Assembly: GCA_000998135.1 (NCBI GenBank) | Contig: LCCV01000001.1 | Coordinates: 8,958 to 72,957 of the forward strand | Direction: 5' to 3' | From: Parcubacteria group bacterium GW2011_GWA2_42_14 | GTDB taxonomy: Bacteria > Patescibacteriota > Minisyncoccia > Sungbacterales > GWA2-42-14 | Length of the DNA stretch: 64,000 bases | Shown: positions 12,198 to 59,512 of the stretch, piece by piece | How positions within the stretch are numbered: position 1 is the first letter of the stretch | Layout of the letters: every line of letters starts with the position of its first letter | The notes under the pieces: model-generated | What the model was told of the DNA's origin: nothing | Seen by the model: only the letters and a program-made list of their open reading frames with translations | Databases searched by the model: none | Made by a program: the position numbers and the translations under genes

Positions 12198-12290
12198 GCG
12201 CCATTCGCCAATCAGTCGCGAATTATTTCGCAAATGGTTTGATAAACTCACCATAAATATTCGCGAATAAAATTAGAGATTGATTAGAGA

Positions 12291-13556
12291 TCAAAATTTC
12301 AAAATTTTCTCGAATTCTTTCTTTTCTTTATATGGCCCGAGCAGTGCCATGTTTAGAGAAGCAGGCTGAAAAATAAAACGAGCCACTCTATTTATATCAT
12401 TAACGGTAACTTTATCTATTTTACCAAAAACCTCATCAATTGTCAAAGGTTTACCGGTTATAATTTCCTCAATTCCTATAAAATCAGCCACTGCGTCAGA
12501 CGCTTCCATTCCTATAAGCGAAGTACCTTTAATATAATCCTTGGCAAGTTTCAACTCCTTTTGACTAACTCCTTTCCCCCTGAGCTTCTTATATTCATTA
12601 AGAATGGTCTGAATAGCCTTTTTTGCGTTAGAATGATCAACCCCGGCATAAGTAACAAAATATCCACGATTGGAAAAAGAATCCTCAACAGTTCGAACAT
12701 TATAGGCCAAACCAAGTTTTTCGCGTATTGTCTCAAACATTCTAGAACTCCAATTTCCGCCGGTAATTATTGATAAAACCTGAAGCGCGTAAATATCCTT
12801 ATGGCTGACGGGAAACCCCCTGAACCCGATGACGACATGGGTTTGGTCGGTTTCCTTATAACCGATTCCTATCATCGGTTTTTTTTGCCCCTCCATGACC
12901 GTGGGCGAATTTCCGGTTTTCGCAACTCTTATGCTGGAAAAATATTTTTTTATTTTTTCAACAGTTTCTTTTTCATCAAAATTTCCGGCAACAATAACCG
13001 CTGTATTTGCCGAAACATAGTGGGTGCTCCAATAATTTACAAAGTCATTTCTTTTAAGTTTTTTCAAAACCTCTTCCGTTCCGACGATTTCCCATCCGGC
13101 TGGCTGGTCACCATATAAAAGATGTTCCCACATCCTCCAAATAAAAGAGGTTGGCGTATCTTTATACTTGTGAATTTCTTCTATTATTACCTGGCGTTCT
13201 TTTATCAATTCTTCTTCTTTTAATAGAGAATTTTTATAAATATCAGACAAAAGGTCCAAAGAAAAATCCAAATGAATTTTTCCGGCCTTTATGAAGTATC
13301 CCGTGAATTCGTGCGAAGTAAAAGCGTTTGAAATTGAACCAATGGAATCAAGTTCACGCTTAATATCAAGGGGCTTGGGCCTTTTTTTCGTGCCCTTGAA
13401 AATCATATGCTCCAAAAAATGCGAGATGCCGTTATTATTTTTAGTTTCGTAATCCGAACCGGTTCCGACCATAACCAAAGTAGTAACAGTGTTGGTGTCC
13501 TTCATAGGAGCAGTAAGTATTCTTAAGCCATTTGGTAAAACAATTTTTTTAAACAT
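12291..13556 (-). CDS. M16-family (insulinase-like) zinc peptidase.
   Basis: Inverted zinc-binding motif HFLEHMIFKG (HxxEH) near the N-terminus. Confidence 0.8.
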   Translation of the reverse strand: MFKKIVLPNGLRILTAPMKDTNTVTTLVMVGTGSDYETKNNNGISHFLEHMIFKGTKKRPKPLDIKRELDSIGSISNAFTSHEFTGYFIKAGKIHLDFSLDLLSDIYKNSLLKEEELIKERQVIIEEIHKYKDTPTSFIWRMWEHLLYGDQPAGWEIVGTEEVLKKLKRNDFVNYWSTHYVSANTAVIVAGNFDEKETVEKIKKYFSSIRVAKTGNSPTVMEGQKKPMIGIGYKETDQTHVVIGFRGFPVSHKDIYALQVLSIITGGNWSSRMFETIREKLGLAYNVRTVEDSFSNRGYFVTYAGVDHSNAKKAIQTILNEYKKLRGKGVSQKELKLAKDYIKGTSLIGMEASDAVADFIGIEEIITGKPLTIDEVFGKIDKVTVNDINRVARFIFQPASLNMALLGPYKEKKEFEKILKF

Positions 13557-17874: not shown

Positions 17875-17950
17875 ATCGCTAATCAATCTCTAATTTTATT
17901 CGCGAATGGTTCGACAAGCTCACCATAAATATTCGCGAATGAATTCGTGT
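17875..17950. repeat. Element of about 80 bp with terminal inverted repeats, one of three copies, sitting immediately upstream of minus-strand gene starts.
   Basis: Sequence cgctaatcaatctctaattttattcgcgaatggttcgacaagctcaccataaatattcgcgaat. Near-identical copies occur at 18497-18570 and 12215-12290. The terminal IR is ctaatcaatctctaattttattcgcgaa / ttcgcgaataaaattagagattgattag. Confidence 0.7.
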
Positions 17951-18495: not shown

Positions 18496-18595
18496 ACTCG
18501 CTAATCAATCTCTAATTTTGTTCGCGAATGGTTCGACAAGCTCACCATAAATATTCGCGAAATAATTCGCGATTGATTAGTGATTTTATTATCGC

Positions 18596-18894: not shown

Positions 18895-21800
18895 TTACCA
18901 TCCGTTTTCTACTTTTGTTTTGTTGTTTTGATACTCCCTGAATGATAATTTGTCAATCCCCGCCCAAACTTGCTTGCCTTCAATCTCCAGATCGCACTCG
19001 GCTTTAAAAATCTTTTTTCCGCCGATGTAAAATTCTTTAGCGCCCGCTTCAGCCATAATAAATTTTTTCCATTTTTCCAAAACAATATCTAAATCCGGAG
19101 CGACTTTGAGATTCCTCGCTTCGCTCGGAATGACGCCGAAGGGGTTCGAAATGATACCGGAAGAAAATTGTACCCGGATTTTATCTCTGGGATGAAGTCC
19201 TAAATCTTTACGCATTTCCTGAATGTTTCTGACAATTTCACGCATCATTCCTTCTTCTTTTAATTCCGGCGTAATCACCGTATCAAGTTTCAATTCTTTC
19301 CCAAAGGTGATTTCTTTCACATTCACTTCTTCTTTAATCAATTCTAATAAATCCTTGCGGAGTTGTCGGTTGTTGGTTGTAAGTTGTAAGTTGGCAAGCG
19401 GCTGTCTTACTTTAATCCCCACCTCGGCTCTTAACTTCAGCGCCTCGGCAACAACCTTTCGTACTGTTTCCATGTCTTTGAAAAGTTTCTTATCGCCCTC
19501 AGTCATCCTGAGCCGCAGCGAAAGATCTTTTGAGATTCTTCGCCCCGCTGCGGCTCCGCTCAGAATGACACCCGAAGAGGGCCACTCCGCTAAATGTACG
19601 CTCTCCTCCTCGAGTCGTATTTTTTTTCTCAATTCCCGCCATATCGCATCGGAAAGAAAGGGAATAAACGGCGCTGTTAATTTTGAAAGCTGTACTAATA
19701 TATATGCTGTTGTTAGAGCCGCCTCATTTTTTTCAACAATTGTTTTTGGTTTCTGAAATCTTCGCCTAGAACGTCTCAAATACCAATTGGAAAAATCATT
19801 AAGAGTAAATTCTTCAATTGCCCGCGCCGCCCCGGTAATATCATATTTATCAAGTTTTTTTGTGACTTCAACAGCCAAATTTTCCAATTTTAAAATAATC
19901 CATTGATCAAGGAAGTTTCTTTTTTTTGAATTTTGAATTTTGAATTTGTTTGGGATTTGGGATTTGGGATTTGGGATTTTATCTATGTATGTATCAAAAA
20001 ACACAAAACTGTTCCAAAGCGTTCCTAAAAATCCCCGAAGTTTTACCTGCAAATCTTTCTCATCAAATTTTTTTGGCTCACCCGGGGAATTAATCGTATA
20101 AAAATACCAACGTATGGTATCCGCCCCGTATTTATTAATCATATCCTTGGGGTTAATCACATTGCCCTTGGACTTAGACATTTTCTGTCCGTTCTTATCA
20201 AGCACGTGCCCAAGCGATATAACATTTTTATAAGGCGCGCCCTTTCCAAGAAGCGTTGCTACGGCAAGCAAAGTATAAAACCACCCTCGCGTCTGGTCCA
20301 CCGCCTCTGATATGTAGTCGGCCGGATACAATAATGTTGTTGGTTGTTGGTTGTTGGTTGTTGGTTGTTTTGCGAAAGGCCAATGACCTTGAGCAAATGG
20401 CATAGCGCCCGAATCAAACCATACATCAATTATCTCCGGAACTCTCTTCATTTCTCCCCCGCATTTTTTACAAGAAAAAACAACGGCATCAATATAGGGC
20501 CGGTGGAGATTCACAGCGCCGGTAAAATCCCGCGGCAAATTTTTTAACGGCAAATCAAGCGTTTCGGCAAAAAAAATAAAATCATCTTCACGCTTCCCCA
20601 TATGCTCACGAATCGTTTCTTCATTAGACCAGCCCAAGGCCCCGCTAAACATCATCCAAATCGGATATTCATGGCTTACAATAAGAATAGTTTTTCCGGA
20701 GTGTTTTTGTTCCATATCCGCCATAAAATCCATAATCCTCGCCCTAAGCTCCGAAAGAGTTTCACCGTTAGGGGGGCGTTTCGTAAATTTTTCCAGATGC
20801 GATGAAAAATAACTATGATACATATGGTCAGGCCTTTCGTGAAAATCACCGACATTCACTTCCTGAATCCTTTTGTCAAAATGAACCGGAAGTTCAATAA
20901 TTTTTCCGACAATTTCCGCGGTTTCCCTTGTTCGCAAAACCGGCGAAGAAATAATCAAATCAATACCCCTTTTTTTCAAAAGACCGGCTCTTTTTTCAGC
21001 TTGGACTCTGCCTTTCAGCGTCAAAGGATGTCCGTCAATAGAACCGCAGAGATTTTTAATATTGGAAAGCGACTCGCCGTGACGCATAACCATATATTTA
21101 TTTCTGGCGACACCGCTCCTTTCATGAAGTTCTTCAAGAGAACCGACGGCCTCAATATTTTCACATTTCCCGCACCTCCATACCGGCAAGGGCGTTCCCC
21201 AAAATCTCTCACGAGAAAAAGCCCAATCGCGGACTTCCCGCAAAAATTCACCGAAACGGCCGTCCTTGATATGCTCCGGCATCCAATTTATTTTAAAATT
21301 GCCTGACAATAATTTTTCTTTCAGCACTGTCATTTTTATCCACCAGGCATTTTTTGCAAAATACAAAAGCGGCGTATCGCACCGCCAGCAATGCGGGTAA
21401 TCATGCTCATGCGGTTTTACAAAAAATAGCAGATTCCGCTTCTTCAAATATTCAATAATGTCGCGGTCCGCGGTTTTTACAAACTTTCCTTCGCCGACAA
21501 TTCCTTTTTTAACCGTGCCGTCAACATTTACCGTGTGCAGTATCGGATAATTTAGCTGAACGTCATTCTGAGCCACAGGCGAAGAATCCCCTCCTTGAGA
21601 TCCTTCGCTTCGCTCAGGATGACGATAATACGACTTTACCGCCCGCATATCATCATCGCCAAACGCCGGCGCTATATGCACCATGCCCGTTCCTTCCTCC
21701 GTAGAAACAAAATCTCCTGGTATAACGCTAAACCCCGGAGGACTGCCCAAAAAATATTCTTGAGGAACGCTGAATAACGGTTCATATTCCGTCCCCAGCA

Positions 21801-22659
21801 GAGATTTTCCCGAAACTTTTTCAACCACCTCAATTTTTTCCTCGGGGCTGTGAGGCGGTATAGTCGCCGACCACACACAATATCTTCCGCCGCCCGCGGC
21901 CCCGTCACCCACTTCCCATTTAGTGTATTCAATCTTCGGATTAACCGCCACCGCCACATTTGCGGGCAGGGTCCATGGCGTAGTTGTCCAAATAAGCAGG
22001 TATTCATTTCTTTCTCCTTTGATTTTTAATTTAACAAAAACAGAATTTTCTTTTACCGTCCTATATGCTCCCGGCTGGCCCAATTCATGCGTGGAAAGGC
22101 CGGTTTCACACCGCGGGCACCACGGCACCACTTTAAAATCCTGATACAAAAGTTTTTTCTTCCAAATTTCTTTGATAATCCACCATAAACTTTCTATATA
22201 CTTGGTTTCATACGTAATGTAAGGGTTTTCAAGGTCAAGCCAAAAACCGATACGCTTGGTTGATTTTTCCCACTCTTCCTTGAACTGCCACACGGACTGG
22301 CGACATTTTTCGTTGAACGCCGCAATGCCATATTTCTCAATATCCTTTTTGGTTTTAATTCCCAACATCTTTTCCACCTGAATTTCAACCGGCAAACCGT
22401 GCGTATCCCACCCGGCTTTTCTCGGCACAAAAAACCCGCGCATAGTTTTATAACGCGGAATAATATCTTTGAACGAGCGCGACTCCAAATGATGAATTCC
22501 GGGAGCAGCATTGGCAGTAGGCGGACCTTCGTAAAATATAAATGTTTTACCCCGTTTATTTTTGGCAAGCGACTTCTCAAAAATCTTGTTTTTCTCCCAA
22601 AATTCCAAAATTTTTTCTTCCCGTTCGGGCAAACTAAGTTGTTTATTATCATCAGACAT
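18895..22659 (-). CDS. ileS: Isoleucyl-tRNA synthetase with an inserted histidine-phosphatase domain and several in-frame repeat insertions.
   Basis: HIGH-region (PPTANAAPGIHH), WCPRCET zinc motif, KMSKS, and a C-terminal zinc-binding region. Residues ~525-715 carry the RHGESLSN, SSPVLRTRETAEIV and ILIVSHEYP motifs of the PGAM/histidine-phosphatase superfamily. Confidence 0.95.
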   Translation of the reverse strand: MSDDNKQLSLPEREEKILEFWEKNKIFEKSLAKNKRGKTFIFYEGPPTANAAPGIHHLESRSFKDIIPRYKTMRGFFVPRKAGWDTHGLPVEIQVEKMLGIKTKKDIEKYGIAAFNEKCRQSVWQFKEEWEKSTKRIGFWLDLENPYITYETKYIESLWWIIKEIWKKKLLYQDFKVVPWCPRCETGLSTHELGQPGAYRTVKENSVFVKLKIKGERNEYLLIWTTTPWTLPANVAVAVNPKIEYTKWEVGDGAAGGGRYCVWSATIPPHSPEEKIEVVEKVSGKSLLGTEYEPLFSVPQEYFLGSPPGFSVIPGDFVSTEEGTGMVHIAPAFGDDDMRAVKSYYRHPERSEGSQGGDSSPVAQNDVQLNYPILHTVNVDGTVKKGIVGEGKFVKTADRDIIEYLKKRNLLFFVKPHEHDYPHCWRCDTPLLYFAKNAWWIKMTVLKEKLLSGNFKINWMPEHIKDGRFGEFLREVRDWAFSRERFWGTPLPVWRCGKCENIEAVGSLEELHERSGVARNKYMVMRHGESLSNIKNLCGSIDGHPLTLKGRVQAEKRAGLLKKRGIDLIISSPVLRTRETAEIVGKIIELPVHFDKRIQEVNVGDFHERPDHMYHSYFSSHLEKFTKRPPNGETLSELRARIMDFMADMEQKHSGKTILIVSHEYPIWMMFSGALGWSNEETIREHMGKREDDFIFFAETLDLPLKNLPRDFTGAVNLHRPYIDAVVFSCKKCGGEMKRVPEIIDVWFDSGAMPFAQGHWPFAKQPTTNNQQPTTLLYPADYISEAVDQTRGWFYTLLAVATLLGKGAPYKNVISLGHVLDKNGQKMSKSKGNVINPKDMINKYGADTIRWYFYTINSPGEPKKFDEKDLQVKLRGFLGTLWNSFVFFDTYIDKIPNPKSQIPNKFKIQNSKKRNFLDQWIILKLENLAVEVTKKLDKYDITGAARAIEEFTLNDFSNWYLRRSRRRFQKPKTIVEKNEAALTTAYILVQLSKLTAPFIPFLSDAIWRELRKKIRLEEESVHLAEWPSSGVILSGAAAGRRISKDLSLRLRMTEGDKKLFKDMETVRKVVAEALKLRAEVGIKVRQPLANLQLTTNNRQLRKDLLELIKEEVNVKEITFGKELKLDTVITPELKEEGMMREIVRNIQEMRKDLGLHPRDKIRVQFSSGIISNPFGVIPSEARNLKVAPDLDIVLEKWKKFIMAEAGAKEFYIGGKKIFKAECDLEIEGKQVWAGIDKLSFREYQNNKTKVENGW
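19921..19982 (-). repeat. Repeat family A copy inserted in-frame in ileS.
   Basis: The DNA ttgaattttgaattttgaatttgtttgggatttgggatttgggatttgggatt encodes IDKIPNPKSQIPNKFKIQNSKK. Confidence 0.8.
20335..20372 (-). repeat. Repeat family C, (GTTGTTGG)n / (TTGTAAG)n, in-frame in ileS.
   Basis: Encodes KQPTTNNQQPTT. Other copies occur at 19368-19396 (LANLQLTTNNRQL), 44716-44786 (intergenic, rpmI-rplT) and 63838-63940. Confidence 0.75.
21562..21624 (-). repeat. Repeat family D, the palindromic unit gtcattctgagc...gctcagaatgac, in-frame in ileS.
   Basis: The DNA gtcattctgagccacaggcgaagaatcccctccttgagatccttcgcttcgctcaggatgacg encodes HPERSEGSQGGDSSPVAQNDV. Other copies occur at 19502-19571 (SLRLRMTEGDKK), 19108-19135 (VIPSEARNL), 55075-55135, 56900-57045 and 59255-59365. 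Confidence 0.8.
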
Positions 22660-22722
22660 ATTACCAATCATATATAAATTCGGCATAAATGCAAAATAAA
22701 AACGGCTTTTGGGGCCGCATAT

Positions 22723-27032: not shown

Positions 27033-27159
27033 AATCCCAAATTCCAATTTCCAAATCTCAAATAAATTCTAAAATCAAATGTTCAAAATTTTTTTTGAAT
27101 TTTGGATTTCGGTAATTCGATATTATTTAGGATTTGATGCTTAGAATTTGGGATTTCAC

Positions 27160-27205
27160 CCCCCGAAATTATTTAATCGCGATTAAATAATTTCGGGGGG
27201 TGACA
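27160..27205. repeat. Perfect 21-bp-arm palindrome whose right arm is the 5' acceptor strand of the tmRNA.
   Basis: Sequence caccccccgaaattatttaatcgc|gattaaataatttcggggggtg. Confidence 0.7.
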
Positions 27206-27653
27206 GGCTTCGACAGGTCATTGAAAGCATTAAAAATCGGGTGGAAGACGTGGAGTAACTTCCTAAAATAATCTTCACAAAAATAAGTGCAAACTTATTG
27301 TCACGAGCAAAAGCAGTTTTTGCGTCAATTTTTGACACAACCGACTCATTTGCTCCAGCTTTTGCCTAACGGTAAAAGCGACTTGTTGCGATAGTAATAT
27401 CGCAACCATCGTCATAACTGGCGCTTGACCGGTTATCAAACGGTGTCATATACTCAAGCTTAATCGATTGATTTTTTCGGGATTAGTCGATGACAAATTT
27501 TCCGAAAGGGATTATGAGTGTTTTGCCTAATTCATAATTCATAATTCCCTGCCCCGAGTTAAATCGAGGGGTTAAACAATAATTCGGCTATCGCCCGTAC
27601 AAATTTTTGATGTAATATGCATCTGGACATGGGTTCGATTCCCATCACTTCCA
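27195..27653 (+). ncRNA. ssrA: tmRNA (ssrA).
   Basis: The 5' end GGGGGUGACAGGCUUCGACAGG matches the tmRNA consensus. The 3' end has a T-arm (auggg-UUCGAUU-cccau) followed by an acceptor strand CACUUCC and a discriminator A, then the sequence continues UCG, so no CCA is encoded. The acceptor stem pairs with a G3.U70 wobble, the Ala identity element. A resume-codon context AAAUAAGUGCAAAC resembles E. coli AAUAGUCGCAAAC. The gene lies immediately downstream of smpB. Confidence 0.8.
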
Positions 27654-27667
27654 TCGAATAAAAATAA

Positions 27668-27706
27668 AACTACCTATTGGGTAGTTTTATTTTTGTGCGA
27701 TTCAAA
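27668..27706 (+). terminator. Terminator downstream of the tmRNA.
   Basis: Stem aaactacc-tatt-ggtagttt followed by tatttttgtg. Confidence 0.6.
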
Positions 27707-27836
27707 TGGAATCTTCCGTTAAACCGCTGAAATTTTGTGTGAATTAGGGTCTTATGTTACTTTTTTGAGACGTATTCGATAATTTTATCCCAATCTAGAT
27801 TATCTTTGATGTAAAAAAGATTAACCACGTCCTTTG

Positions 27837-28284: not shown

Positions 28285-29136
28285 CTAAGCAACAAACCCT
28301 GAAGAAGCAATACCTGAATCATTTATTCTTTTTAATGCAAGTTTACAATAATGTTTATTATTATCTATGCCTATAAATTTTCTGCCGGTCATTTGAGCTA
28401 CAACAGGAAGAGTGCCGCTGCCCATAAATGGGTCAATAATAATATCTCCTTTATTGCTTGTACCGACGACTAGACGATTTATAAGCTCGACTGGTTTTTG
28501 TGAAGGATGTTTGCCATGTCTTTTTTCAGAAATAGAGGTTGATGGTATATCCCACATGTTTCTCATTTGTATACCGCCGTTTATTTCCTTAAGTTTTTTA
28601 TAATTAAAAATCCAGTTTTTTGCATTTTTTTTAGTTTCGTTCACAGCCCAAATTATATGCTCCGTACTTTCGCATAACATTCGCTGAGTAACATTAGGGA
28701 AAGCATTCCGCTTATACCAGATAATAGAATTTATCAATTTGCGATTTAGGTTTTGTAAGATAGTGCCAATTTGATATATGTTGTGATACGAACCGAAAAC
28801 AATAATATTGCCGTTTGGTTTGACAACCCTAGCCACTTCAAAAAGCCAATCTTTAGTGAATGATAAGTAATCGTCATCTGAAAATTTATCCCACCCTGCA
28901 TCGATTTTTGAAAAGTTTTTCTCTTTTGTCCAAACCTCATTAGATTGGAGCCAGCCGATTTTTTTCTTATGATCATAGCCAGAAATATTATAAGGCGGAT
29001 CGGTAATACAGTGGTCAACTGAATGACTCGGAAGCGACCTAAGAATTTTAATGGCATCGCCAAAAACCAAAGAACTTTCTCGGGTAGTGTCAATTTCCTC
29101 TTTTAATGATATGCTTTTCATCGATGAATACTTCAA
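28285..29136 (-). CDS. DNA methyltransferase of the beta class (N6-adenine or N4-cytosine).
   Basis: Motif IV DPPY (HCITDPPYNI) lies N-terminal and motif I FxGSG (DPFMGSGT) C-terminal, the beta-class order. A ParB/SPOUT-free core of about 280 aa. Confidence 0.8.
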   Translation of the reverse strand: MKYSSMKSISLKEEIDTTRESSLVFGDAIKILRSLPSHSVDHCITDPPYNISGYDHKKKIGWLQSNEVWTKEKNFSKIDAGWDKFSDDDYLSFTKDWLFEVARVVKPNGNIIVFGSYHNIYQIGTILQNLNRKLINSIIWYKRNAFPNVTQRMLCESTEHIIWAVNETKKNAKNWIFNYKKLKEINGGIQMRNMWDIPSTSISEKRHGKHPSQKPVELINRLVVGTSNKGDIIIDPFMGSGTLPVVAQMTGRKFIGIDNNKHYCKLALKRINDSGIASSGFVA

Positions 29137-30101
29137 ACGTAGACAATCTTATAAATCAGTTGAAACAACTTCAATCCGATTTCCATGCTACATTCGGCGT
29201 TACCGATATTATAACAAATAGTAAGATATTTGAGATCCTCATTGCCAACTCCCTTGACCATATTCTTATTCCTGGTCATTCAGGATCTCGCGACGCAAAA
29301 GACGCTACGGGCAAAGAATTCGAATATAAACATTATAAGGAAAGTAGCTCAAATCATTCGTGGACTTTTAATGACTTCTCCGACACTACTATTACCAAAC
29401 TAGCCAATACTAAGGCGGTTATTTTTGCACATATACAGGATGCGGATTTGCCGTTTCCAAAATTTGACTGGTATTACGAAGTGTCAGGCCGAGTAATATC
29501 AGATTATTTGGCAAAAGCTACCCGGAAAATAAAAAATAACAGGAAAATGATCAATGTGAGTCCTAAGCAAATTGAAGAACGCATGGGACTCACCAAACAG
29601 ATAGTAAGTCATTCCTCCGGCCGTTATTCTTCTTGGATCAAACGCATTATTGATGTTGCCGGTAAGATTGAAATTGAAGTCGGTACGGTCGGTATTCTCA
29701 CGAGTAATAAATTTTGGGAAGTTTTAGTTGCGCTTAAGTTGGGTCATAGGGTTCAATCCGAACAGGCCAAACATGACGCCACCGATAAAGCCGGCAATAT
29801 GTACGAGTATAAAGTGGCAAAAGGATCAAGTTGGAGTTTCCAAGATATTTCAAATGATGTTTTGCGTAAATATCTTTCCGACCAAAATATTATTTTGGCT
29901 TGTGTCGATAAGGACGATTTTTTGGTTAAGAAAATATATGTTGCCAACACTAAAAAGATTGTTGGCTTGTTAAGAAAAAAACTGCGTGAAAAAAAACGAC
30001 GGTACTCTCTACTGGGAAAGGAAGTTCGGCGAAAACAAATATCACTTACTGTAAAAGATCTAAGAAATATTCGAACAAAACTGATATATTCGGCTGACTA
30101 A
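29106..30101 (+). CDS. Putative restriction endonuclease: a tandem-duplicated PD-(D/E)xK domain on a single chain.
   Basis: Two internally repeated halves each carry D-x(n)-E-Y-K (GSRDAKDATGKEFEYKHYKESSSNHSWTFNDF and EQAKHDATDKAGNMYEYKVAKGSSWSFQDI). The gene is divergently overlapped with one methyltransferase and convergent with the second. Confidence 0.45.
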   Translation: MICFSSMNTSNVDNLINQLKQLQSDFHATFGVTDIITNSKIFEILIANSLDHILIPGHSGSRDAKDATGKEFEYKHYKESSSNHSWTFNDFSDTTITKLANTKAVIFAHIQDADLPFPKFDWYYEVSGRVISDYLAKATRKIKNNRKMINVSPKQIEERMGLTKQIVSHSSGRYSSWIKRIIDVAGKIEIEVGTVGILTSNKFWEVLVALKLGHRVQSEQAKHDATDKAGNMYEYKVAKGSSWSFQDISNDVLRKYLSDQNIILACVDKDDFLVKKIYVANTKKIVGLLRKKLREKKRRYSLLGKEVRRKQISLTVKDLRNIRTKLIYSAD

Positions 30102-37566: not shown

Positions 37567-37849
37567 ATGGCCGGGAATACCCGGCTTTTTTTATTCTCCT
37601 TCGCCGAATACCGACCGGCTTGGTTTACTCCGCCGAAGTAGCTTCGCCCGTCCTCCGTCCATCCTTCACAGCCGAAGCGGCTGCTTCGGCGGAGTAGGCC
37701 AGTAGCTCTGCTACGTAGGATGGAGCTACGAAGACTGGGCTGGTCGGAGCTTCATTTCGTCCGCAAGCAATTCGCTTCGCTAACGTGAAGTGAATCCGCG
37801 CCGCTTGTCGGGACTGGATACGAAAACGAAGTGAAAATTTTTTCCAAAA

Positions 37850-50695: not shown

Positions 50696-52534
50696 TTATT
50701 TCAAAAACTTCAGCATTTTTTCAAGAGACCATCCGTTGATAATATCCTTACGTTCCGCCCATCCTCTTCTGGCTTGCGCAATTCCAAACTCCAACATTTT
50801 AAAATGCTGAATTGAATGCGCATCAGAATCAATTGACATTTTTACTCCTGCCCTAACGCATTTTCTAATATATTCATCTTTTATATCGGCGCGATTAGGA
50901 TACGCGTTGACTTCCAAAATGGTTCCGGTACGTTTCGCGGCCGCGATAATTTCATCAATATCCAACTCAATCGGCTCGCGTTTATTGATAAGACGACCGG
51001 TAAGATGAAAAATAATATCAACATTCGTATTTTCCATGGCGCGGATAATGCGTTTGGTTTGTTCTTGGCGCGAAAGGTTAAAATGACTATGAACGGCCGC
51101 GCCAACAACATCCAATTTTGCCAAAACCTCGTCTTTGATGTCCAGCTCACCGTTTTTCCCAATATTTACTTCCGCTCCCTTTAATATTTTGAATTTGGAA
51201 TTTGGAATTTGTTTGGAATTTAGCTTGTCTATATATGCCATTTGTTTCAAAAGTTTCTTCTCGTCCGAACCGCCGGTCATGGCAAGGGAACGGGTATGGT
51301 CCGTAATCACAATATATTGAAGTCCGGCTTCCATAGCCGCTTTGGCCATTTCTTCAATAGAATTTTCTCCGTCGGTCCAATCGGTTTGAACTTGCATATC
51401 GCCTTTTAAATCGCCATATTTGATTAAATCCGGTAGCAAGGGCCCGACCCGTGCGCGACCAAGGTCGGACCTTGCATGTATAACGAGTTTACCCTGAGCA
51501 TGTCGAAGGGCCGCTTCAATTTCTCCTGTATTTTCACGCATTTCCGGCTCGATATAACTAAGTCCAAGGGCCTTATATAATTCTTCCTCGGTTTTTCCGG
51601 CAACCAATATCTCCGCTGAACCACGCAGACCGTTTCCGCGACTGTCTGCGTCCTGTCCGCGTGAGTCCGCGCTTCGAAAGAGACCATATTCATTAAGCTT
51701 CCACCCTTTCTTAATCGCAATTTGCCGCAAAGCGACATTATGGTCTTTTGAGCCGGTAAAATAATTAAGGGCCGCGCCGAATGATTCCTTTGGCACGACG
51801 CGCAAATCCGCATCAAGACCATTTTTTAATTTCACGGCTGTTTTGGTTTTGCCGTGCGCGTAAACATGGGCAATAAAAAGCAAACCCAGAAATCTCTCCA
51901 TTACTATTTCCGGCTTTGATGACGTAACCAAAATATCAATATCACCAATGGTTTCTTTGCTCCTCCTAACTGAACCGGCCACAACCGCCTTTTCAACTTC
52001 GGGAAACGACTGAATCATTTTTTCAAGCGTACGAATTTCCGGCAAAATAAATCCCAAAACAGCTCTTCCGCCGGATTTTTTCAAAAATTCAATTCCTTTT
52101 AAAATTTTTTGCTCTGATTTATCTCCAAAGTGTTCAAGTTTCCGGATTTTCCCGGCTTTAGCCGCTTTTTCCAAATCCGCCAAGTTGCGAATTCTTAATT
52201 TCTGCCATAGTGTTTTTACCATTCTGGGCCCAACGCCTTCCACCGCAGTCAATTCAGAAATATTCACCGGAATTTTTTTCTTCAATTTTTCATATTCGTC
52301 AAAATTTCCTTTTTCCAAAAGCTGTTTGATATGAAAAGCAATTCCTTTTCCCACGCCGGGAATTTCCAAAAGAGCTTTTTCTCCTCCTTCTTTATAAATT
52401 TCTTTTACTTCTTGAGCAAGCGATTCAACACCCAATGCCGCCTTCTCATAAGCGCGCGGTTTAAATAAAACTCCTTCCATTTCGTACAATACAGCCATCT
52501 CATTTAATATTTTAGCAATCTCACTATTGGTCAT
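50696..52534 (-). CDS. Family X DNA polymerase with a C-terminal PHP domain (PolX).
   Basis: N-terminal HhH motifs (LLEIPGVGKGIA, LTAVEGVGPRMVKTLW), the palm motif GSVRRSKETIGDIDILV, and a C-terminal PHP region (HARSDLGRA, ITDHTRS, HSHFNLS...DSDAHS). Confidence 0.85.
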   Translation of the reverse strand: MTNSEIAKILNEMAVLYEMEGVLFKPRAYEKAALGVESLAQEVKEIYKEGGEKALLEIPGVGKGIAFHIKQLLEKGNFDEYEKLKKKIPVNISELTAVEGVGPRMVKTLWQKLRIRNLADLEKAAKAGKIRKLEHFGDKSEQKILKGIEFLKKSGGRAVLGFILPEIRTLEKMIQSFPEVEKAVVAGSVRRSKETIGDIDILVTSSKPEIVMERFLGLLFIAHVYAHGKTKTAVKLKNGLDADLRVVPKESFGAALNYFTGSKDHNVALRQIAIKKGWKLNEYGLFRSADSRGQDADSRGNGLRGSAEILVAGKTEEELYKALGLSYIEPEMRENTGEIEAALRHAQGKLVIHARSDLGRARVGPLLPDLIKYGDLKGDMQVQTDWTDGENSIEEMAKAAMEAGLQYIVITDHTRSLAMTGGSDEKKLLKQMAYIDKLNSKQIPNSKFKILKGAEVNIGKNGELDIKDEVLAKLDVVGAAVHSHFNLSRQEQTKRIIRAMENTNVDIIFHLTGRLINKREPIELDIDEIIAAAKRTGTILEVNAYPNRADIKDEYIRKCVRAGVKMSIDSDAHSIQHFKMLEFGIAQARRGWAERKDIINGWSLEKMLKFLK

Positions 52535-52770: not shown

Positions 52771-54337
52771 AATCTAGAATGGTGCTGGGAAGCACTAAAA
52801 CGCTGGAGGGGATCGAGGCCCGTATGGGCTTCGGCAAGGGAAAAAAACCCGGCAATTGCGTCAGGAAGAAACATTACCCTTGTGAGGGCGGATAGTGGCG
52901 GATTCCCCGGCAGAAATGCCGCAGAAACCACAATTCCAACATCCTATTTTTGCCTCCCATTTTTCTTGACAAAAAATCCTGTATAGACTACATATTAAAG
53001 TCCAACCTTAAAAACATAAAAAACAGGCCGTTTGGCGAAAAAAGCCCATAATTCCTACATTAAGCAACACTCAGTGTTGCTAAGGGGTGTCGGCTGGCCA
53101 AAGACGCCGCTCCCACAAAAGAAGTATTTTTATCGTCAAAAAAAGCTCGTAATAATACCCTGAAGATCTAGGATTGAAGCATTCACAAATTCATATTTGT
53201 TAGAGAATAGCAGAAATTTACGGGTTTTTTCCGCCGATAAAAGGCGAAAAGTTTACCGCAGTTCAAAATACACCGACGGGTGTAGGGTGCTCGGAATGCC
53301 CGTGGCATCCCTGCGGTTCTGCTTAGCAGCCAAACCGGCTGCAAACAAAAACTTGGGCTAGGCGGGAAGGTCGCACCAGGAACACAAGCGTAAAGGTACC
53401 AGCCCGCCGAAAGGATCGGAAGTAGGTCTGCCCAAGCGGGGCCGGGAGATATTAGGACAGAAATAAAGTCAAAAATCTCCCGGCTCCACCCTTTTTTTAA
53501 AAATTAAAAATAAAAAATCGGCTGTTGATTAATGGATAACTCGTTACATGTTTCATGTCACATGTTTCAGGAAAATCTATTAATCAGCCGCCGATACCAG
53601 CCCTAACTCCACTAAAGCGCAATGCGCTGGAAGGACTGGTCAAAACGGTGGCTCAAAATACAATACTGCGGCTGTTGCTTGACTGCGCGCGAAAGCGAAG
53701 CAGAAAGGCGATAGAAGAGGTAGCCCCTCTTACCGGCCGGCCTTGGATTATTGGCCGGTTCCGCAAAAAAATCGCAAACTGGGCCTTGAGTTTCGCGGCG
53801 AAATTTAACGCGAAGTACGAGGGGACGCTCCTCACTCGCCGCGCAACTGACAAACGGACCCCAACAAGAAGGGTTCGGGCCAAACTACAAACAGCTTCTT
53901 GGTGGGAATGTGGAGCGTCCTGTACAGGTGTTCGCAAACGAACAAACCGCCTGAAAAGACCGGTCCTGTACACCCAGCAACCCTCCACCAAGAACCATCT
54001 TCGGCGCCGCTTACCGCGGACGCCGAAGGACTCGCCAACCAAGGCGGGTCATTTCAACCCCTCGACGCCAGACCGAGACCGAGAAGGCTTATAAAATCGG
54101 CGTCGAGCATCGCCGTACCCGGAAAACGGGAAGCGGCAGCGCAGGGACGAATCCGCAAGGGTACGGAGCACACACCAGCACCAGCCGCTCCACCCAATTC
54201 GGGCCCGCGCAACCAACCCGCCCGACCGATTACAAATCAGTTTAGGGCGGGTCCCAAAAAAAACCGTCCCTCCCGCTTGCGGGAGGGACGACAAAATAAT
54301 TCAAGAAGCCTTGTCTCGCGACAAGGCCTGTTTTTTA
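52771..54337 (+). ncRNA. Candidate large structured non-coding RNA of about 1.57 kb, or two RNAs split near 53500. I could not assign it to any known family.
   Basis: No credible ORF; only overlapping spurious ORFs on both strands, as expected for GC-rich sequence. GC content is far above the genomic background. A consensus promoter lies upstream and a strong intrinsic terminator downstream. There are many nested GC helices with GNRA/tetraloop caps: gtgct-GGGA-agcac, cggca-GAAA-tgccg, gcaacac-tca-gtgttgc, gcagcc-aaac-cggctgc, cttcggcg...cgccgaag, ctcgacgcc...ggcgtcgag, gtaccc...gggtac, and ccgtccctcccgc-ttg-cgggagggacg. Confidence 0.5.
54303..54337 (+). terminator. Strong rho-independent terminator.
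   Basis: Stem gccttgtc-tcgcg-acaaggc followed by ctgttttttattt. Confidence 0.7.
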
Positions 54338-54358
54338 TTTATTTGTTTCAATATGAGG

Positions 54359-55021
54359 TTAAATCTGCTTTTGGCCGTAAAATTGGGCAAGGTCATGCGG
54401 AACTTTTGGTTTAATATAAGGCCTCAAAAAAATAAGTATTATTAATCCGATAAGGCTGAAAGTTCCGCTGACAAAAAAAATCGGGCGAATCCCGACAATG
54501 GCCGCAAGAATTCCGGAAAACAAACTTCCCAAAGCAGTTCCTGCTCCAATGGAAAAACTTGACCAAAGCGACCATTCAAATGCTTCCTTGTCTTTATCCA
54601 AATGGCGTGAAAACATTCCAAAAAAAGGCGGAACATACAGCGCGTACCCGACCGCTAACAAAATTTGAAGAAAATAAATTTGCCAGACCGAGCCGACAAA
54701 ATAATACATAAATTGCACAACCATAATAACGGCAAGGCCTATAAGCATTGAATAATAATCATCAATTTCTCCGTGGTTTTTATCAAGCTGGCGGGCAACC
54801 GGCAGCTGCACTATTGATTTTACCGCCCAAAAAATTGCCACGGCAATTCCCACGACGGTTACCGGCGCCAAAATATCATTCACGATAAACAGCGCAAAGA
54901 GAGGCGTAATGAAAGCCGTTGAAGCCCCAATGACAAATTCGGCAAAAATAATAATCAAAATAACCTGATTTATTTGGGGAAATGAAAATTTTGGAAAATT
55001 TACGTTAAATATAAATTTCAT
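54359..55021 (-). CDS. Membrane transporter-like protein (MFS-type half); the N-terminus of the tracked ORF comes from a repeat.
   Basis: Six TM helices. The start is placed at MKFIFNV because upstream codons fall in repeat family D. Confidence 0.4.
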   Translation of the reverse strand: MKFIFNVNFPKFSFPQINQVILIIIFAEFVIGASTAFITPLFALFIVNDILAPVTVVGIAVAIFWAVKSIVQLPVARQLDKNHGEIDDYYSMLIGLAVIMVVQFMYYFVGSVWQIYFLQILLAVGYALYVPPFFGMFSRHLDKDKEAFEWSLWSSFSIGAGTALGSLFSGILAAIVGIRPIFFVSGTFSLIGLIILIFLRPYIKPKVPHDLAQFYGQKQI

Positions 55022-55246
55022 GTTTTTATTGAAACTATCAAATAATTTATTGCCCGAGCCTGTCGAAGGCATACCTTAAGAATCTATAGAATAATGTAAC
55101 CCTTCGACTTCGCTCGGCTTCGCTCAGGGAATAATTCAACACTCTTATTTATTATAGCAAAAAATCAAAAGCCCCGCTATAAGCGGAGCTTTTGGCTTAA
55201 AAATATCTGTGTTAATCCGCGTTATTATCAGTGTTTATCCGCGTTT

Positions 55247-56899: not shown

Positions 56900-57045
56900 C
56901 CTAATACGGGGCTGTCCCAAAACTGTCATTCCGAATTTTGTAAAGAATCTCAATTATTTAGAAACGGCTTAAATACAAGATTCTTCGCTTCGCTCAGAAT
57001 GACGAAAATACTGTTTTCGTAGTTTTGGGACAGCCCCAATACATA
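56900..57045. repeat. Composite inverted-repeat element of the GTCATTCTGAGCGAAGCGAAGAATC family.
   Basis: Outer arms ggggctgtcccaaaac / gttttgggacagcccc. Inner arms tgtcattccgaa / ctcagaatgacg flank attcttcgcttcgctcagaatgac. Confidence 0.6.
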
Positions 57046-57113: not shown

Positions 57114-58424
57114 TCAGAAGAGGCTCGCCTGTTTGGAAATCTCTCTCCTCTCCCCTTCCTCGAAAATTCTCACTTTGCCGTAAAGACCGTCGTAGCCGGG
57201 CTCTATATGAAGCCGCCCCTCGCGAACCCGCATAATACCCTCAACAATTTCCGGCTTAATTTTTCCTTCAAGGTCAGCGCGGGAAACATCAAATAGTACC
57301 GATATCTCGTTTCCGAATTCAGCAACAATATTCTTAAACTCCTCCTGAATTTTTTTTGTCGTAGCCGAAGCAACCCCTAATGACTCGGCAATAATCTCAT
57401 CAAGCGGAACCATATTTTTATACGGAATCGCTTTTTCCGGTTTAAATCCTTCAGATTTAAATCCTTCCGGTCTATCCGCCAATTCTTCCACACGGCTCAT
57501 CACTCCCACGGTAACCTTTTTTCCGCACTTGGGGCAAAGGCCTTTTAATTTTCTGGTTTCTTCGGGAGCAAGCCTGATATTGCAATCCCTATGGCCGTCA
57601 TAGTGATAAATCCCCTCTTCCGGAAAAAATTCTATGGTGGAAAGAAAACGTTTGGGGTCTTTAGATTTTATTGCTTCAATAATCCCGTTATATGAAAGTT
57701 CTGCGTCAAAAATATTCGCTTCTCGCCCAATGCGTCTTAAAGAATGGCTGTCGGAATTGGAAATCAGCGCATATTTATCAAGCGCTGAAACCCGCCAATT
57801 CATGGCCGGGTCACTAGACAAACCCGTTTCCAGAGCAAAAATATGCTTTGAGTACTCATCAAAACATTCTTCAATTGAATCAAAACCGGATTTGGAACCG
57901 AACACGGAAAACCAAGGGGTCCATATATGCGCCGGAACAAAAAAACAATTGGGGTCGGCATTTAAGACAATCTTCAAAAGCTCTTTAGAATCAAGCCCCA
58001 AAATCGGCCGGCCATCGGATTTAATATTTCCGCGGATATTCAACTGCGCGTTTATTTTTTCCGCCGTCTCAACTGACGACGCAAAAATCAGATTGTGAAT
58101 TCTTCTAACCTTCCCGCCTTTGGAATAAATGCTTGAAATTTCCACCGTCAGCATAAAACGCGTTTTGGAATTTGAGTTTTGGTCATTTGAATTTATTAGG
58201 GATTTGGGATTTGGGATTTGGGATTTTAGTTTAAAGATTCCTTGCTCCGCCGGCTCCAGTTTCTCTTTAATTTCTTTTATCCATTTAGGATGCGTAAAAT
58301 CTCCAGTCCCCATAACCGTAATTCCCTTGAGCCCTGCCCAATAATCCAAATTCTCCAAAGTCATTTCTTTGGAAACCGCGCGCGCGTATGGCGAATGAAT
58401 ATGAAAATCAGCAATTATTCTCAT
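57114..58424 (-). CDS. PHP-domain protein with a Zn-ribbon (EndoQ-like / TIGR00375-type).
   Basis: MRIIADFHIHSPYA marks the PHP N-terminus; the HIWTPWFSVFG, DSHSLRRIG and CPKCGKK motifs follow. An in-frame repeat A insertion, KSQIPNPKSLINSNDQNSNSK, is present. Confidence 0.5.
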   Translation of the reverse strand: MRIIADFHIHSPYARAVSKEMTLENLDYWAGLKGITVMGTGDFTHPKWIKEIKEKLEPAEQGIFKLKSQIPNPKSLINSNDQNSNSKTRFMLTVEISSIYSKGGKVRRIHNLIFASSVETAEKINAQLNIRGNIKSDGRPILGLDSKELLKIVLNADPNCFFVPAHIWTPWFSVFGSKSGFDSIEECFDEYSKHIFALETGLSSDPAMNWRVSALDKYALISNSDSHSLRRIGREANIFDAELSYNGIIEAIKSKDPKRFLSTIEFFPEEGIYHYDGHRDCNIRLAPEETRKLKGLCPKCGKKVTVGVMSRVEELADRPEGFKSEGFKPEKAIPYKNMVPLDEIIAESLGVASATTKKIQEEFKNIVAEFGNEISVLFDVSRADLEGKIKPEIVEGIMRVREGRLHIEPGYDGLYGKVRIFEEGERREISKQASLF

Positions 58425-58476
58425 ACGGACATATTGTAAAGTATTTTTGAAAAGAAAAAAAGCCGTTAAAACGGCT

Positions 58477-58854
58477 TTACTTACTCTCTGCTTTTTCCTG
58501 GGCCGATAATTCAAAAAAAGTTATTACAAAATTAACTAAGGCCAAAACCACAAAAAAGAGAGCTAATCCCAGATAACCAAACATAAAAAACTCTTCCATC
58601 GCAATTCCCCACCAAAGGGCAACCACGCCAAATATTACCGCAACTACCGCCCAATAAATCGCCCAAAAGGTTAAAACAAACGGCATCCGCTTAGTATCAA
58701 CCATACGATCAAAACCATAAATCATCCATCCCCATACAACCACCAAAATCGAGGGAATAACCTGAACAAACTCAAGGTTCGGCCAAATTTTAAAGTACGT
58801 AAAGAACAATCCGGCACTCATTAAAAATAACCCAGCCGCGTTCCACTTTCGCAC
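58477..58854 (-). CDS. Membrane protein, hypothetical.
   Basis: A 125-aa ORF with four TM helices. Confidence 0.4.
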   Translation of the reverse strand: MRKWNAAGLFLMSAGLFFTYFKIWPNLEFVQVIPSILVVVWGWMIYGFDRMVDTKRMPFVLTFWAIYWAVVAVIFGVVALWWGIAMEEFFMFGYLGLALFFVVLALVNFVITFFELSAQEKAESK

Positions 58855-59033: not shown

Positions 59034-59258
59034 TTATTTATTTTCTTTATCTTCTTCCAAACTATTATTCTCCGGCTTTTTAAACCATTTTTTAAAATAA
59101 TTTCCTCCGCCGAAAAGCCATAAACCGGCGACAATCAAAAGAATGCCCGGAACAAACGGAACAAAAAGAGATAATATCCCGAGAAAAATCAAAACCAGTC
59201 CTAAAAATTTTCTGAATAAATTTAAAAACCAAGAAAACATAAAATCTTTTTTCGTCAT
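59034..59258 (-). CDS. Small membrane protein, DUF454/YbaN-like.
   Basis: The core, MTKKDFMFSWFLNLFRKFLGLVLIFLGILSLFVPFVPGILLIVAGLWLFGGGNYF, fits the family. The tracked ORF's N-terminal 35 codons are encoded by a palindromic repeat and are excluded. Confidence 0.45.
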   Translation of the reverse strand: MTKKDFMFSWFLNLFRKFLGLVLIFLGILSLFVPFVPGILLIVAGLWLFGGGNYFKKWFKKPENNSLEEDKENK

Positions 59259-59512
59259 TGCGAGGAGCGAAGTAATACGGCAATCCCACACATAAATCAT
59301 ACATAAATCCAAAAGATTGCTTCCCGCCACGCTCCCCTCGGTCGCTCGCGGTCGCAATGACACGAAACGCGTAAGTCCTAATATTTTTAAAAAGTATCCG
59401 CGTATATCCGCGTATCCGCCTCGATTATCCCCCGGATAATCAAGTCCGCTTCTACGAGCCGCAGACCATAATTAAAATGCAAAAGAAAGTTGCCAAACAA
59501 GATAAACAAATA

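Follow-up and report, generated by a model that had tools for sequence, protein, structure and literature searches.

Introduction

In Rickettsia, palindromic elements (RPEs) lie in frame within many genes, essential ones included, of reduced genomes with scant intergenic space. The present work deals with a short hairpin-forming repeat that carries an unpaired YGTC tag and occurs three times, always in frame, within ileS, the gene of isoleucyl-tRNA synthetase (IleRS), in a 64-kb stretch of contig LCCV01000001.1 from Parcubacteria group bacterium GW2011_GWA2_42_14 (this whole stretch is called the window below). The closest described system is the CGTC-tagged superfamily of repetitive extragenic palindromes (REPs) (Di Nocera, De Gregorio & Rocco 2013, BMC Genomics 14:522; PMC3733652). 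Its members end with an unpaired CGTC, often TGTC (CCTC is allowed), followed by a stem of 8–9 bp that starts from A-T and T-A, a loop of 4–5 nt and a 3-nt tail with the consensus CCA. They are arranged mostly in one inverted dimer polarity (HH) with spacers of 20–100 bp and have no dedicated transposase; the dimer peptides VIAGLDPAI...DARVKPGHD imply that the tags point outward. Families CGTC-1 to CGTC-4 are distinguished, and dRS3 of Neisseria as well as RPE-4 and RPE-6 of R. conorii are counted among the members. In-frame intragenic CGTC copies are known, REP insertions are listed in tRNA synthetase genes, and in vivo expression was reported for R. conorii proteins with RPE-1. The hosts given in 2013 are Proteobacteria, Chlorobi, Bacteroidetes, Spirochaetes and Thermotogae only (PMC3733652).

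A previous reading of the window from its sequence only had described a REP-like hairpin repeat located in frame in ileS, between genes and at gene starts, and indeed the sequences are present at all the positions where it placed them. It had also called in-frame insertion in the gene of an essential aminoacyl-tRNA synthetase unusual; it is not novel in kind, as it is already described for CGTC-tagged REPs and for RPE-4/-6 (PMC3733652). It is probable that the element is a further family within the CGTC-tagged superfamily, namely a small non-autonomous palindromic repeat which was dispersed and survived in tolerant loops of IleRS.

Three in-frame copies in ileS

The coordinates of ileS and of all copies of the repeat in the window are collected in Table 1. 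The IleRS encoded here comprises the Pfam domains tRNA-synt_1, Anticodon_1 and DUF5915 plus an inserted His_Phos_1. It is 100% identical to the protein of GW2011_GWA2_42_14 and is recorded on 9 contigs from several sources. It was aligned with 58 orthologues of 48–64% identity to the query (64% is the closest IleRS in the protein search). Against this alignment sites A, B and C stand out as extra sequence of 19–24 codons each, in frame. The inserted segments are missing from nearly all the orthologues, 53 of which have no copy of the repeat at all; the sequence-only reading is thus upheld in that the repeat peptides are not a regular part of IleRS.

Table 1. Position of ileS, of the copies of the repeat and of its untagged relative in the window
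Feature	Position	Strand	Evidence
ileS (isoleucyl-tRNA synthetase), host of three repeat insertions	18895..22686	minus	ORF and translation, 1263 aa
Copy A, two CGTC-tagged hairpin units as a dimer, tags outward	21556..21624 (element proper 21561-21625)	.	sequence
Copy B, dimer, tags outward, inner stems enlarged	19501..19572	.	sequence, profile matches
Copy C, one intact unit and degenerate duplicate of tagged end	19102..19158	minus	sequence, profile match
Copy D, intergenic dimer	56908..57037 (dimer 56922-57006)	.	sequence, inverted repeat, profile
Copy E, CGTC/TGTC-tagged dimer	59254..59364	.	sequence, fold
F, untagged relative of the repeat	55053..55130	.	sequence, fold

Copy A reads RHPERSEGSQGGDSSPVAQNDVQ in ileS (aa 355–377) and lies in the CP1 editing domain; this segment is not present in most aligned orthologues. 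Its two arms differ from each other (ATTCT...AGAAT and ATCCT...AGGAT), each being compensated internally. Copy B encodes GVILSGAAAGRRISKDLSLRLRMT (aa 1039–1062), and among the aligned orthologues only P0011 has an insert there, which is its own copy of the element at the same site. Copy C had been regarded as a half-copy at 19108–19135. One intact unit is indeed found at this place (CGTCATTCCGAGCGAAGCGAGGAATCTC on the minus strand), but the full insertion is longer, 57 nt or 19 codons, as it includes a partial duplicate of the tagged end. It encodes GIISNPFGVIPSEARNLKV (aa 1177–1195), and no aligned orthologue has even one residue at this site. Both B and C fall in the C-terminal anticodon-binding/DUF5915 region.

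All three in-gene copies keep the frame and are free of stops in the frame that is read. Four of the six frames are open in copies A and B, whereas none is free of stops in the intergenic copy D. The lengths of the pairs in the wider family (see below) are uniform modulo 3 (21/22/29). Since the hairpins are stable and situated within a coding region, it might be supposed that the mature protein lacks the inserts, which would be skipped by ribosomal bypass or excised from RNA, as a translational hop or a mini-intron. Bypass elements are associated with hairpins, T4 gene 60 and the yeast mitochondrial 'byp' elements being examples. Such an explanation is highly improbable here: no Rfam intron or other Rfam family matches the repeat, and the open frames of the in-gene copies, the stops in copy D and the uniform lengths point to selection on the translated sequence, which speaks against bypass or excision.

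Structure of the repeat unit

Each arm of the repeat forms a hairpin by itself, with the consecutive parts YGTC, ATYCT, GA GC GAA GC GA, AGRAT and C-T-C. The unit of ~27 nt is made up of the unpaired YGTC tag, a 5-bp stem starting from A-T, the loop GAGCGAAGCGA and the C-T-C tail. The loop contains tandem G.A juxtapositions and a G-C/C-G inner stem closed by GAA, i.e. the d(GCGAAGC) mini-hairpin, an extraordinarily stable DNA structure described by Hirao and colleagues (PMC13037366). In total nine stem positions are stacked (five Watson–Crick pairs, GA/GA and two further Watson–Crick pairs) and the loop proper is the 3-nt GAA. In some copies, B and E of the window among them, a longer GC-rich stem-loop takes the place of the inner GC-GAA-GC.

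The stem varies in a paired manner: ATTCT/AGAAT, ATCCT/AGGAT, ATTCC/GGAAT and ATGCT/AGCAT were found, as well as ATTTC/GAAAT, GTCCT/AGGAC and ACCCT/AGGGT. Covariation was tested on 48 arms that had not been picked by the search pattern. In these, 96.7% of cells are paired, and for five of the seven pairs both sides have changed. Double-change cells number 41, against 9.2 ± 2.7 in shuffles (0 of 500 shuffles), and the covariation score is 0.376 against at most 0.125 in slid registers. The beginning of the stem is nearly invariable, with A at position 8 in 95% and T at position 9 in 97% of arms; pair 8-28 is A-U in 39 and pair 9-27 is U-A in 46 of the 48. The tag is TGTC in 142, CGTC in 30, GGTC in 5 and AGTC in 2 of the 179 arms with at least 4 of 5 stem pairs, and in the window CGTC is found in copies A and C, in the right arm of D and in the left arm of E. 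After the stem follow C (100% of arms), T (78%) and C (55%). The functional unit is the single arm hairpin of ~27 nt and not only the long palindrome on which the sequence-only reading was centred, although a pair of arms can also fold as a long hairpin.

The consensus arm is open in two frames out of three on each strand, and the third meets TGA. The arm read with the G-loop encodes VILSEAKNL or CHSERSEES, and the one with the C-loop EILRFAQND or RFFASLRMT.

The copies in the window are related at the nucleotide level, as had been claimed. The 25-mer GATTCTTCGCTTCGCTCAGAATGAC occurs three times with at most 2 mismatches (19110, 21599 and 56979), whereas a Hamming scan of shuffled windows gives about 1 match even with up to 8 mismatches. 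An nhmmer profile of the arm matches 21597–21625 in copy A (E = 6e-10), 56978–57005 in copy D (2e-9) and 19108–19135 in copy C (8e-8), as well as 19502–19528 and 19553–19570, the E-values ranging from 6e-10 to 2e-3. Nothing further in the window falls below E = 0.03, which leaves four loci, the three in ileS and 56922–57006. When folded as DNA, most copies are more stable than their shuffles: copy A (−16.6 kcal/mol, z = −4.8), B (−16.9 kcal/mol, z = −3.1), D together with its outer inverted repeat (−32.7 kcal/mol, z = −8.1), E (−19.8 kcal/mol, z = −3.2) and F (−14.1 kcal/mol, z = −3.0). The single arm C is an exception and as a long hairpin is no better than chance (z = 0.2).

Insertion sites in IleRS

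AlphaFold2 models of an N-terminal and a C-terminal fragment of the protein were built with orthologue alignments. In the former, insert A is predicted as a coil (aa 357–374) with pLDDT below 50 between helix 344–354 and strand 381–383, while the editing domain has pLDDT above 90. Insert B is likewise modelled as a coil with pLDDT below 50 (residues 343–357 of the C-terminal fragment). Insert C (residues 478–496 in the same numbering) is mostly coil with one 3-residue helical turn and means of 56–58 over 10-residue blocks, and is flanked by strand 471–477 and helix 500–506. The three encoded peptides are thus apparently floppy surface loops, being low-confidence coil between confident elements of the models. 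The question of whether these places correspond to loops, raised in the sequence-only reading, is answered by the models in the affirmative for all three. Most likely the inserts are translated, as judged from the intact ORF, and represent disordered loop decorations without a function of their own.

The same element is found in other IleRS genes of the candidate phyla radiation (CPR). This was confirmed at the DNA level for three of them: site B is occupied by a dimer in P0011, site A by a cluster in P0026, and a fourth loop by a dimer in P0032. The same insert is present at this fourth loop in P0047, seen at the peptide level only. The query has at this fourth loop the peptide QPTTNNQQPTT, encoded by (CAACCAA)n, instead of the element. 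In the alignment the closest relatives of the query, P0011 and P0026 are without the inserts at sites A and B, which makes independent gain the more parsimonious explanation. The copies in the same loops were therefore probably gained independently, though repeated loss is possible at these distances. In other lineages site A is occupied by unrelated low-complexity or simple-repeat inserts, so that a permissive loop combined with survivorship is favoured over a required hairpin.

These data bear on the possibility that the hairpins are cis-elements selected in place and act in ileS mRNA or DNA, where they might pause translation while domains fold, stabilise the mRNA, bring about attenuation or serve as replication or supercoiling sites. 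The gene covers 5.9% of the 64 kb and holds three of the four clear copies (P about 8e-4), and the independent copies in the same loops of P0011, P0026, P0032 and P0047 would also fit such a role. In other bacteria transcription of REPs and an effect on the fate of mRNA have been reported (PMC3733652; PMC12306157). However, 53 of the 58 orthologues are free of copies, partner arms decay (the left arms of A and D, for example), the unrelated inserts in the same loops argue for permissive sites, and the element is scattered intergenically across phyla. Selection in place is for these reasons quite unlikely.

Several further features of this gene were observed. Short tandem DNA repeats give rise to in-frame inserts at 20335–20367, 19924–19977 and 19360–19389, the first being the (CAACCAA)n stretch mentioned above, the second (ATCCCAA)n encoding IPNPKSQIPNKFKIQNSK and the third encoding LQLTTNNRQL. 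Peptides of the KSQIPN type recur in the window genes 57114–58514 and 50696–52534 and, in other lineages, at site A of IleRS. Residues 533–695 (20602–21090) form an inserted histidine-phosphatase domain (His_Phos_1, PF00300, E = 6e-35), which is present in nearly all of the 120 best IleRS homologues, all from Parcubacteria/Sungbacteria-like CPR, and represents a fusion of an aminoacyl-tRNA synthetase with a phosphatase.

Distribution and arrangement of the repeat

Loci in public genomes were collected with the exact 21-mer CTTCGCTTCGCTCRGRATGAC, which yielded at least 120 loci where about one is expected by chance in 596 Gb. Among the matches listed Acidobacteriota contribute the largest number; the others are from Nitrospirota, Bacteroidales, Chloroflexota, Verrucomicrobiota and Gemmatimonadota; Lachnospiraceae, Oscillospiraceae, Ignavibacteria, Bdellovibrionales, Omnitrophica and WOR-3; Eremiobacterota, Nitrospinota, Sphingopyxis, Gracilibacteria, Saccharimonadales and other Patescibacteria. 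The repeat is thereby found, nearly letter for letter, in more than 15 bacterial phyla. The 21-mer is also present in 68 predicted viral contigs of IMG/VR (L121–L188), some with 2–3 copies, a number that may include proviral or host flanks as well as true phages. As the source of the window is a metagenome-assembled genome, mis-assembled metagenomic reads or faulty binning could be suspected behind the inserts. This is hardly credible: the identical insert-bearing protein stands on nine contigs from several sources, the inserts are in frame at loop positions, and the same element occurs in isolate records, those of Edaphobacter aggregans DSM 19364 and Chloroflexales bacterium ZM16-3.

The arrangement of arms was surveyed in 188 loci and the window, 351 arms in all. 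Inverted pairs have their tags outward in 72 cases and inward in 11, and 11 pairs are in tandem. Single arms account for 207 of the 351, many of them intact. The spacer of the tags-outward pairs has a median of 29.5 nt (range 2–99). Direct repeats flanking these pairs are at chance level (1 of 72 both at k = 2 and at k = 3). Matches of 2–6 nt directly beside the tags were seen in 0–1 of 72 dimers, and 2-mers one base out in 6 of 72, which is at or near chance. When the ORFs within 1.5 kb of the copies in 120 loci were compared with one another by BLAST, no protein family proved recurrent, the largest cluster comprising 9 loci; as a negative result this carries little weight. Two candidates for a neighbour of the copies, a GIY-YIG nuclease and a transposase, were rejected on the basis of this comparison. 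It follows that the repeat is non-autonomous, makes no target-site duplication and has no intrinsic length compatible with coding.

The inverted-repeat architecture with a variable centre, as well as the termini TG...CA where the tag is TGTC, resemble a classical miniature inverted-repeat transposable element (MITE), i.e. a deleted insertion sequence whose arms serve as terminal inverted repeats for a DDE transposase and whose insertion duplicates the target site. We regard this as very unlikely. The direct repeats are at the chance level given above, each arm is a covarying hairpin, which would be needless in a terminal repeat bound by a transposase, more than half of the arms counted are single and many of these are intact, and no transposase recurs beside the copies. 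The DDE-type MITE was rejected because there is no target-site duplication among the 72 dimers.

Beside many single arms the tagged end together with 6–9 nt of flank is duplicated in tandem (GCTCAGGATGACAgtaagtGCTCAGGATGACAgtaag), as in loci L003, L024, L032, L036, L042, L054, L058, L081 and L092. In the window a degenerate version of it, TTCGAAATGATA, is found at 19136–19160 in copy C. This duplication may be a footprint of copying or nicking of the element.

Relation to known repeats and probable mode of spread

With the CGTC-tagged REPs the present repeat shares the YGTC tag, the A-T start of the stem, the short tail, the outward orientation of dimers, the common singletons and the lack of an associated transposase gene. 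The peptides are alike as well: CGTC-1 gives VIPAKAGI (from GTCATTCCCGCGAAGGCGGGAATC) in the same frame in which VIPSEARNL or VILSEAKNL is read here. In one locus (L093) an arm of CGTC-1 type, GTCATTCCCGCGAAGGCGGGAATC, even forms a pair with one of the present family. The differences are the tail, which is CTC instead of the published CCA, and the hosts, which here include Patescibacteria, Acidobacteriota, Chloroflexota, Nitrospirota, Verrucomicrobiota, Firmicutes and others. The RPEs are similar in that in-frame palindromic repeats add short peptides to essential genes, but they represent another sequence family in another host phylum, RPE-1 is 100–150 bp long, and the link goes only through the assignment of RPE-4/-6 to the superfamily.

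GTAG-tagged REPs and their doublets (REPINs), which are associated with the tyrosine transposases RAYT, also have a hairpin with an unpaired tetranucleotide, form inverted doublets that fold into a larger hairpin, lack target-site duplication and decay from doublets into singlets. In contrast to them, the tag is YGTC here and not GTAG, and the unit is near-identical across phyla whereas GTAG REPs are largely species-specific. No RAYT/Y1 transposase was found near the copies in 120 loci or among ten scanned ORFs of the window. The MITEs of Coxiella burnetii (PMC5896051) are likewise small non-autonomous inverted repeats able to add peptides in frame; they have terminal inverted repeats and DDE target-site duplications, and no duplication is seen here. 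Literature searches with the encoded peptides and DNA words of the repeat found nothing, and those pairing CPR or Patescibacteria with palindromic or REP elements found nothing relevant. The kind of element, its in-frame behaviour, tRNA synthetase genes included, and the absence of a dedicated transposase are already known for CGTC repeats. New are Patescibacteria as a host, a loop subfamily that is near-identical across more than 15 phyla and viral contigs, and the triple insertion in one essential gene.

The spread of such a repeat can be pictured as follows. The units stand alone or, more frequently, form inverted pairs whose tags face outward, and such a pair can fold as one long hairpin. 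They would spread, or have spread formerly, leaving no target-site duplication and having no transposase of their own. As the REP/REPIN elements suggest by analogy, the repeat was most likely mobilised in trans as single-stranded hairpin DNA by a tyrosine (HUH-type) transposase or by another enzyme of the host or of a mobile element. The genome is gene-dense, with long ORFs covering about 82% of the window, and many landings would therefore be inside genes. To survive there, a copy would need a length that keeps the frame, a frame free of stops and a tolerant surface loop that accepts 19–24 residues; ileS would have accumulated three such survivors.

Several points weigh against CGTC-type dispersal followed by survivorship. 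The interior of the unit, GA-GC-GAA-GC-GA with a 3-nt loop, is of comparable size but differs in form from the continuous 8–9-bp stem and 4–5-nt loop of the described CGTC repeats. A Pfam scan of 10 of the 56 window ORFs revealed no Y1 or other transposase that could act as the mobiliser. Mobility itself we infer from multicopy dispersal and from presence or absence among orthologues of at most 64% identity. Finally, the concentration of three of the four clear copies in ileS is not obviously predicted by pure random insertion with survivorship and is not fully explained by it.

A different view would be that the CGTC hairpins with the GAGCGAAGCGA loop all represent one element, which is essentially pan-bacterial (at least 15 phyla, Patescibacteria included, plus the 68 viral contigs), that some universal host function recognises the single-stranded DNA hairpin with its d(GCGAAGC) core, and that insertion is targeted. 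We consider it unlikely. If it were true, near-identity across phyla would be kept by this host recognition, this function would be sought among replication or priming factors and widespread HUH enzymes, not among dedicated transposases, and insertion would be directed to certain sites (those coding for IleRS loops, or hairpin-prone DNA exposed in replication) and not merely filtered by selection.

With dispersal of a CGTC-tagged REP as the preferred explanation, selfish DNA in essential genes as known from Rickettsia extends to the CPR, another reduced and gene-dense lineage, where the same loops of one enzyme have been struck repeatedly. Differences in IleRS length among CPR are partly repeat-derived, and peptides of the types VILSEAKNL, RHPERSEGS, ILRFAQND and FASLRMT will lead to spurious 'hypothetical proteins' and to false homologies between phyla. 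As to what moves CGTC REPs that have no transposase, the repeat offers a sharply defined substrate for biochemical fishing: a 21-mer shared without any change by Acidobacteriota, Saccharimonadales, rumen Firmicutes and viral contigs, and built on the most stable known DNA mini-hairpin.

Other copies and features of the window

Copy D has one perfect consensus arm (56978–57005) and a decayed partner. The dimer is nested in a perfect 17-nt inverted repeat GGGGCTGTCCCAAAACT (56908–56924 and 57021–57037), so that its description as a nested intergenic inverted repeat at 56900–57045 was correct. An outer inverted repeat, GGCTGCGGAAAA...TTTTCCGCAGCC, also surrounds some dimers of other genomes (L004, L008, L052, L060 and L112); it was found in 7 of 212 flanks and in 0 controls, in both Acidobacteriota and Saccharimonadales. 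The outer repeat of copy D resembles it, which suggests a larger composite element.

Copy E is a true tagged dimer in which the stem variant ATTGC/GCAAT is compensated and the loops are enlarged. The ORF of a small membrane protein, 59034–59363 (109 aa), has its listed start in the region of overlap with this copy, and its Pfam matches begin only at residue 42–53. The listed N-terminus is probably repeat-derived, in agreement with the false N-terminal codons assigned earlier to 59255–59365. A false N-terminus had also been attributed to a copy at 55075–55135 in the ORF of a major facilitator superfamily (MFS) protein, 54359–55072. Here the Pfam matches start at residue 36–42 (MFS_1 at residue 42), which is consistent with the claim, though F overlaps only the first ~5 codons of this ORF. 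F has the stem and the GAGC...CGA loop build of the family with the loops GAGCCTGTCGA and GAGCGAAGCCGAGCGAAGTCGA, but it is a relative and not a member because it has no YGTC-AT tag. Several ORF starts of the window are probably repeat artefacts.

A known structured RNA as the identity of the repeat was rejected, as no Rfam family matches it: over the whole window only transfer-messenger RNA (tmRNA) reaches the gathering score, and around copy D at E ≤ 10 there are only chance-level miRNA-like matches.

Two GC-rich clusters (1690–1760 and 37600–37790) had been named as a related family. They have only CGAAG-like words in common with the ileS element, their relatedness is not demonstrable, and membership in the same family was rejected. 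Both are intergenic in a genome of 41% GC, contain nested inverted repeats and share the mini-palindrome GTAGC-N3-GCTAC (2 exact copies, with 0.34 expected at up to 1 mismatch). They may be GTAG-type REP-like sequences.

A third repeat family is located at 12210–12295, 17875–17950 and 18497–18590. It is a nested palindrome of ~90 nt with the core ATGGT-GAGCTTGTCGA-ACCAT (an AT-rich version of the core at 12254) and has TTCGCGAA boxes and AATCAATCTCTAATT arms on its flanks. Its copies lie directly upstream of gene start codons (12254, 17872 and 18495). The 5-bp stem and GAGC-NNN-KCGA loop are built like those of the ileS element, with no YGTC tag.

The stretch at ~53200–54400 has no convincing ORF, only overlapping Arg/Pro-rich ORFs on both strands, and its GC content is up to 0.62 against the window mean of 0.41. 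No Rfam family matches it at E ≤ 0.01, and the one ORF scanned there (53555–54094) has no Pfam match. It could be an RNA of a new type, a decayed gene or foreign DNA.

The region 28285–30101 likely encodes a type II restriction-modification pair, in which an N6_N4 DNA methylase (E = 2e-49) overlaps the ORF of a PvuII-like endonuclease with a weak match. The tmRNA gene is located at 27196–27656 (Rfam, 117 bits); ARAGORN found no tRNA or tmRNA in the window, though Rfam detects the latter. Within 27156–27708 the gene is bracketed by a perfect 25-nt palindrome (27156–27203) and a 29-nt inverted repeat (27646–27708).

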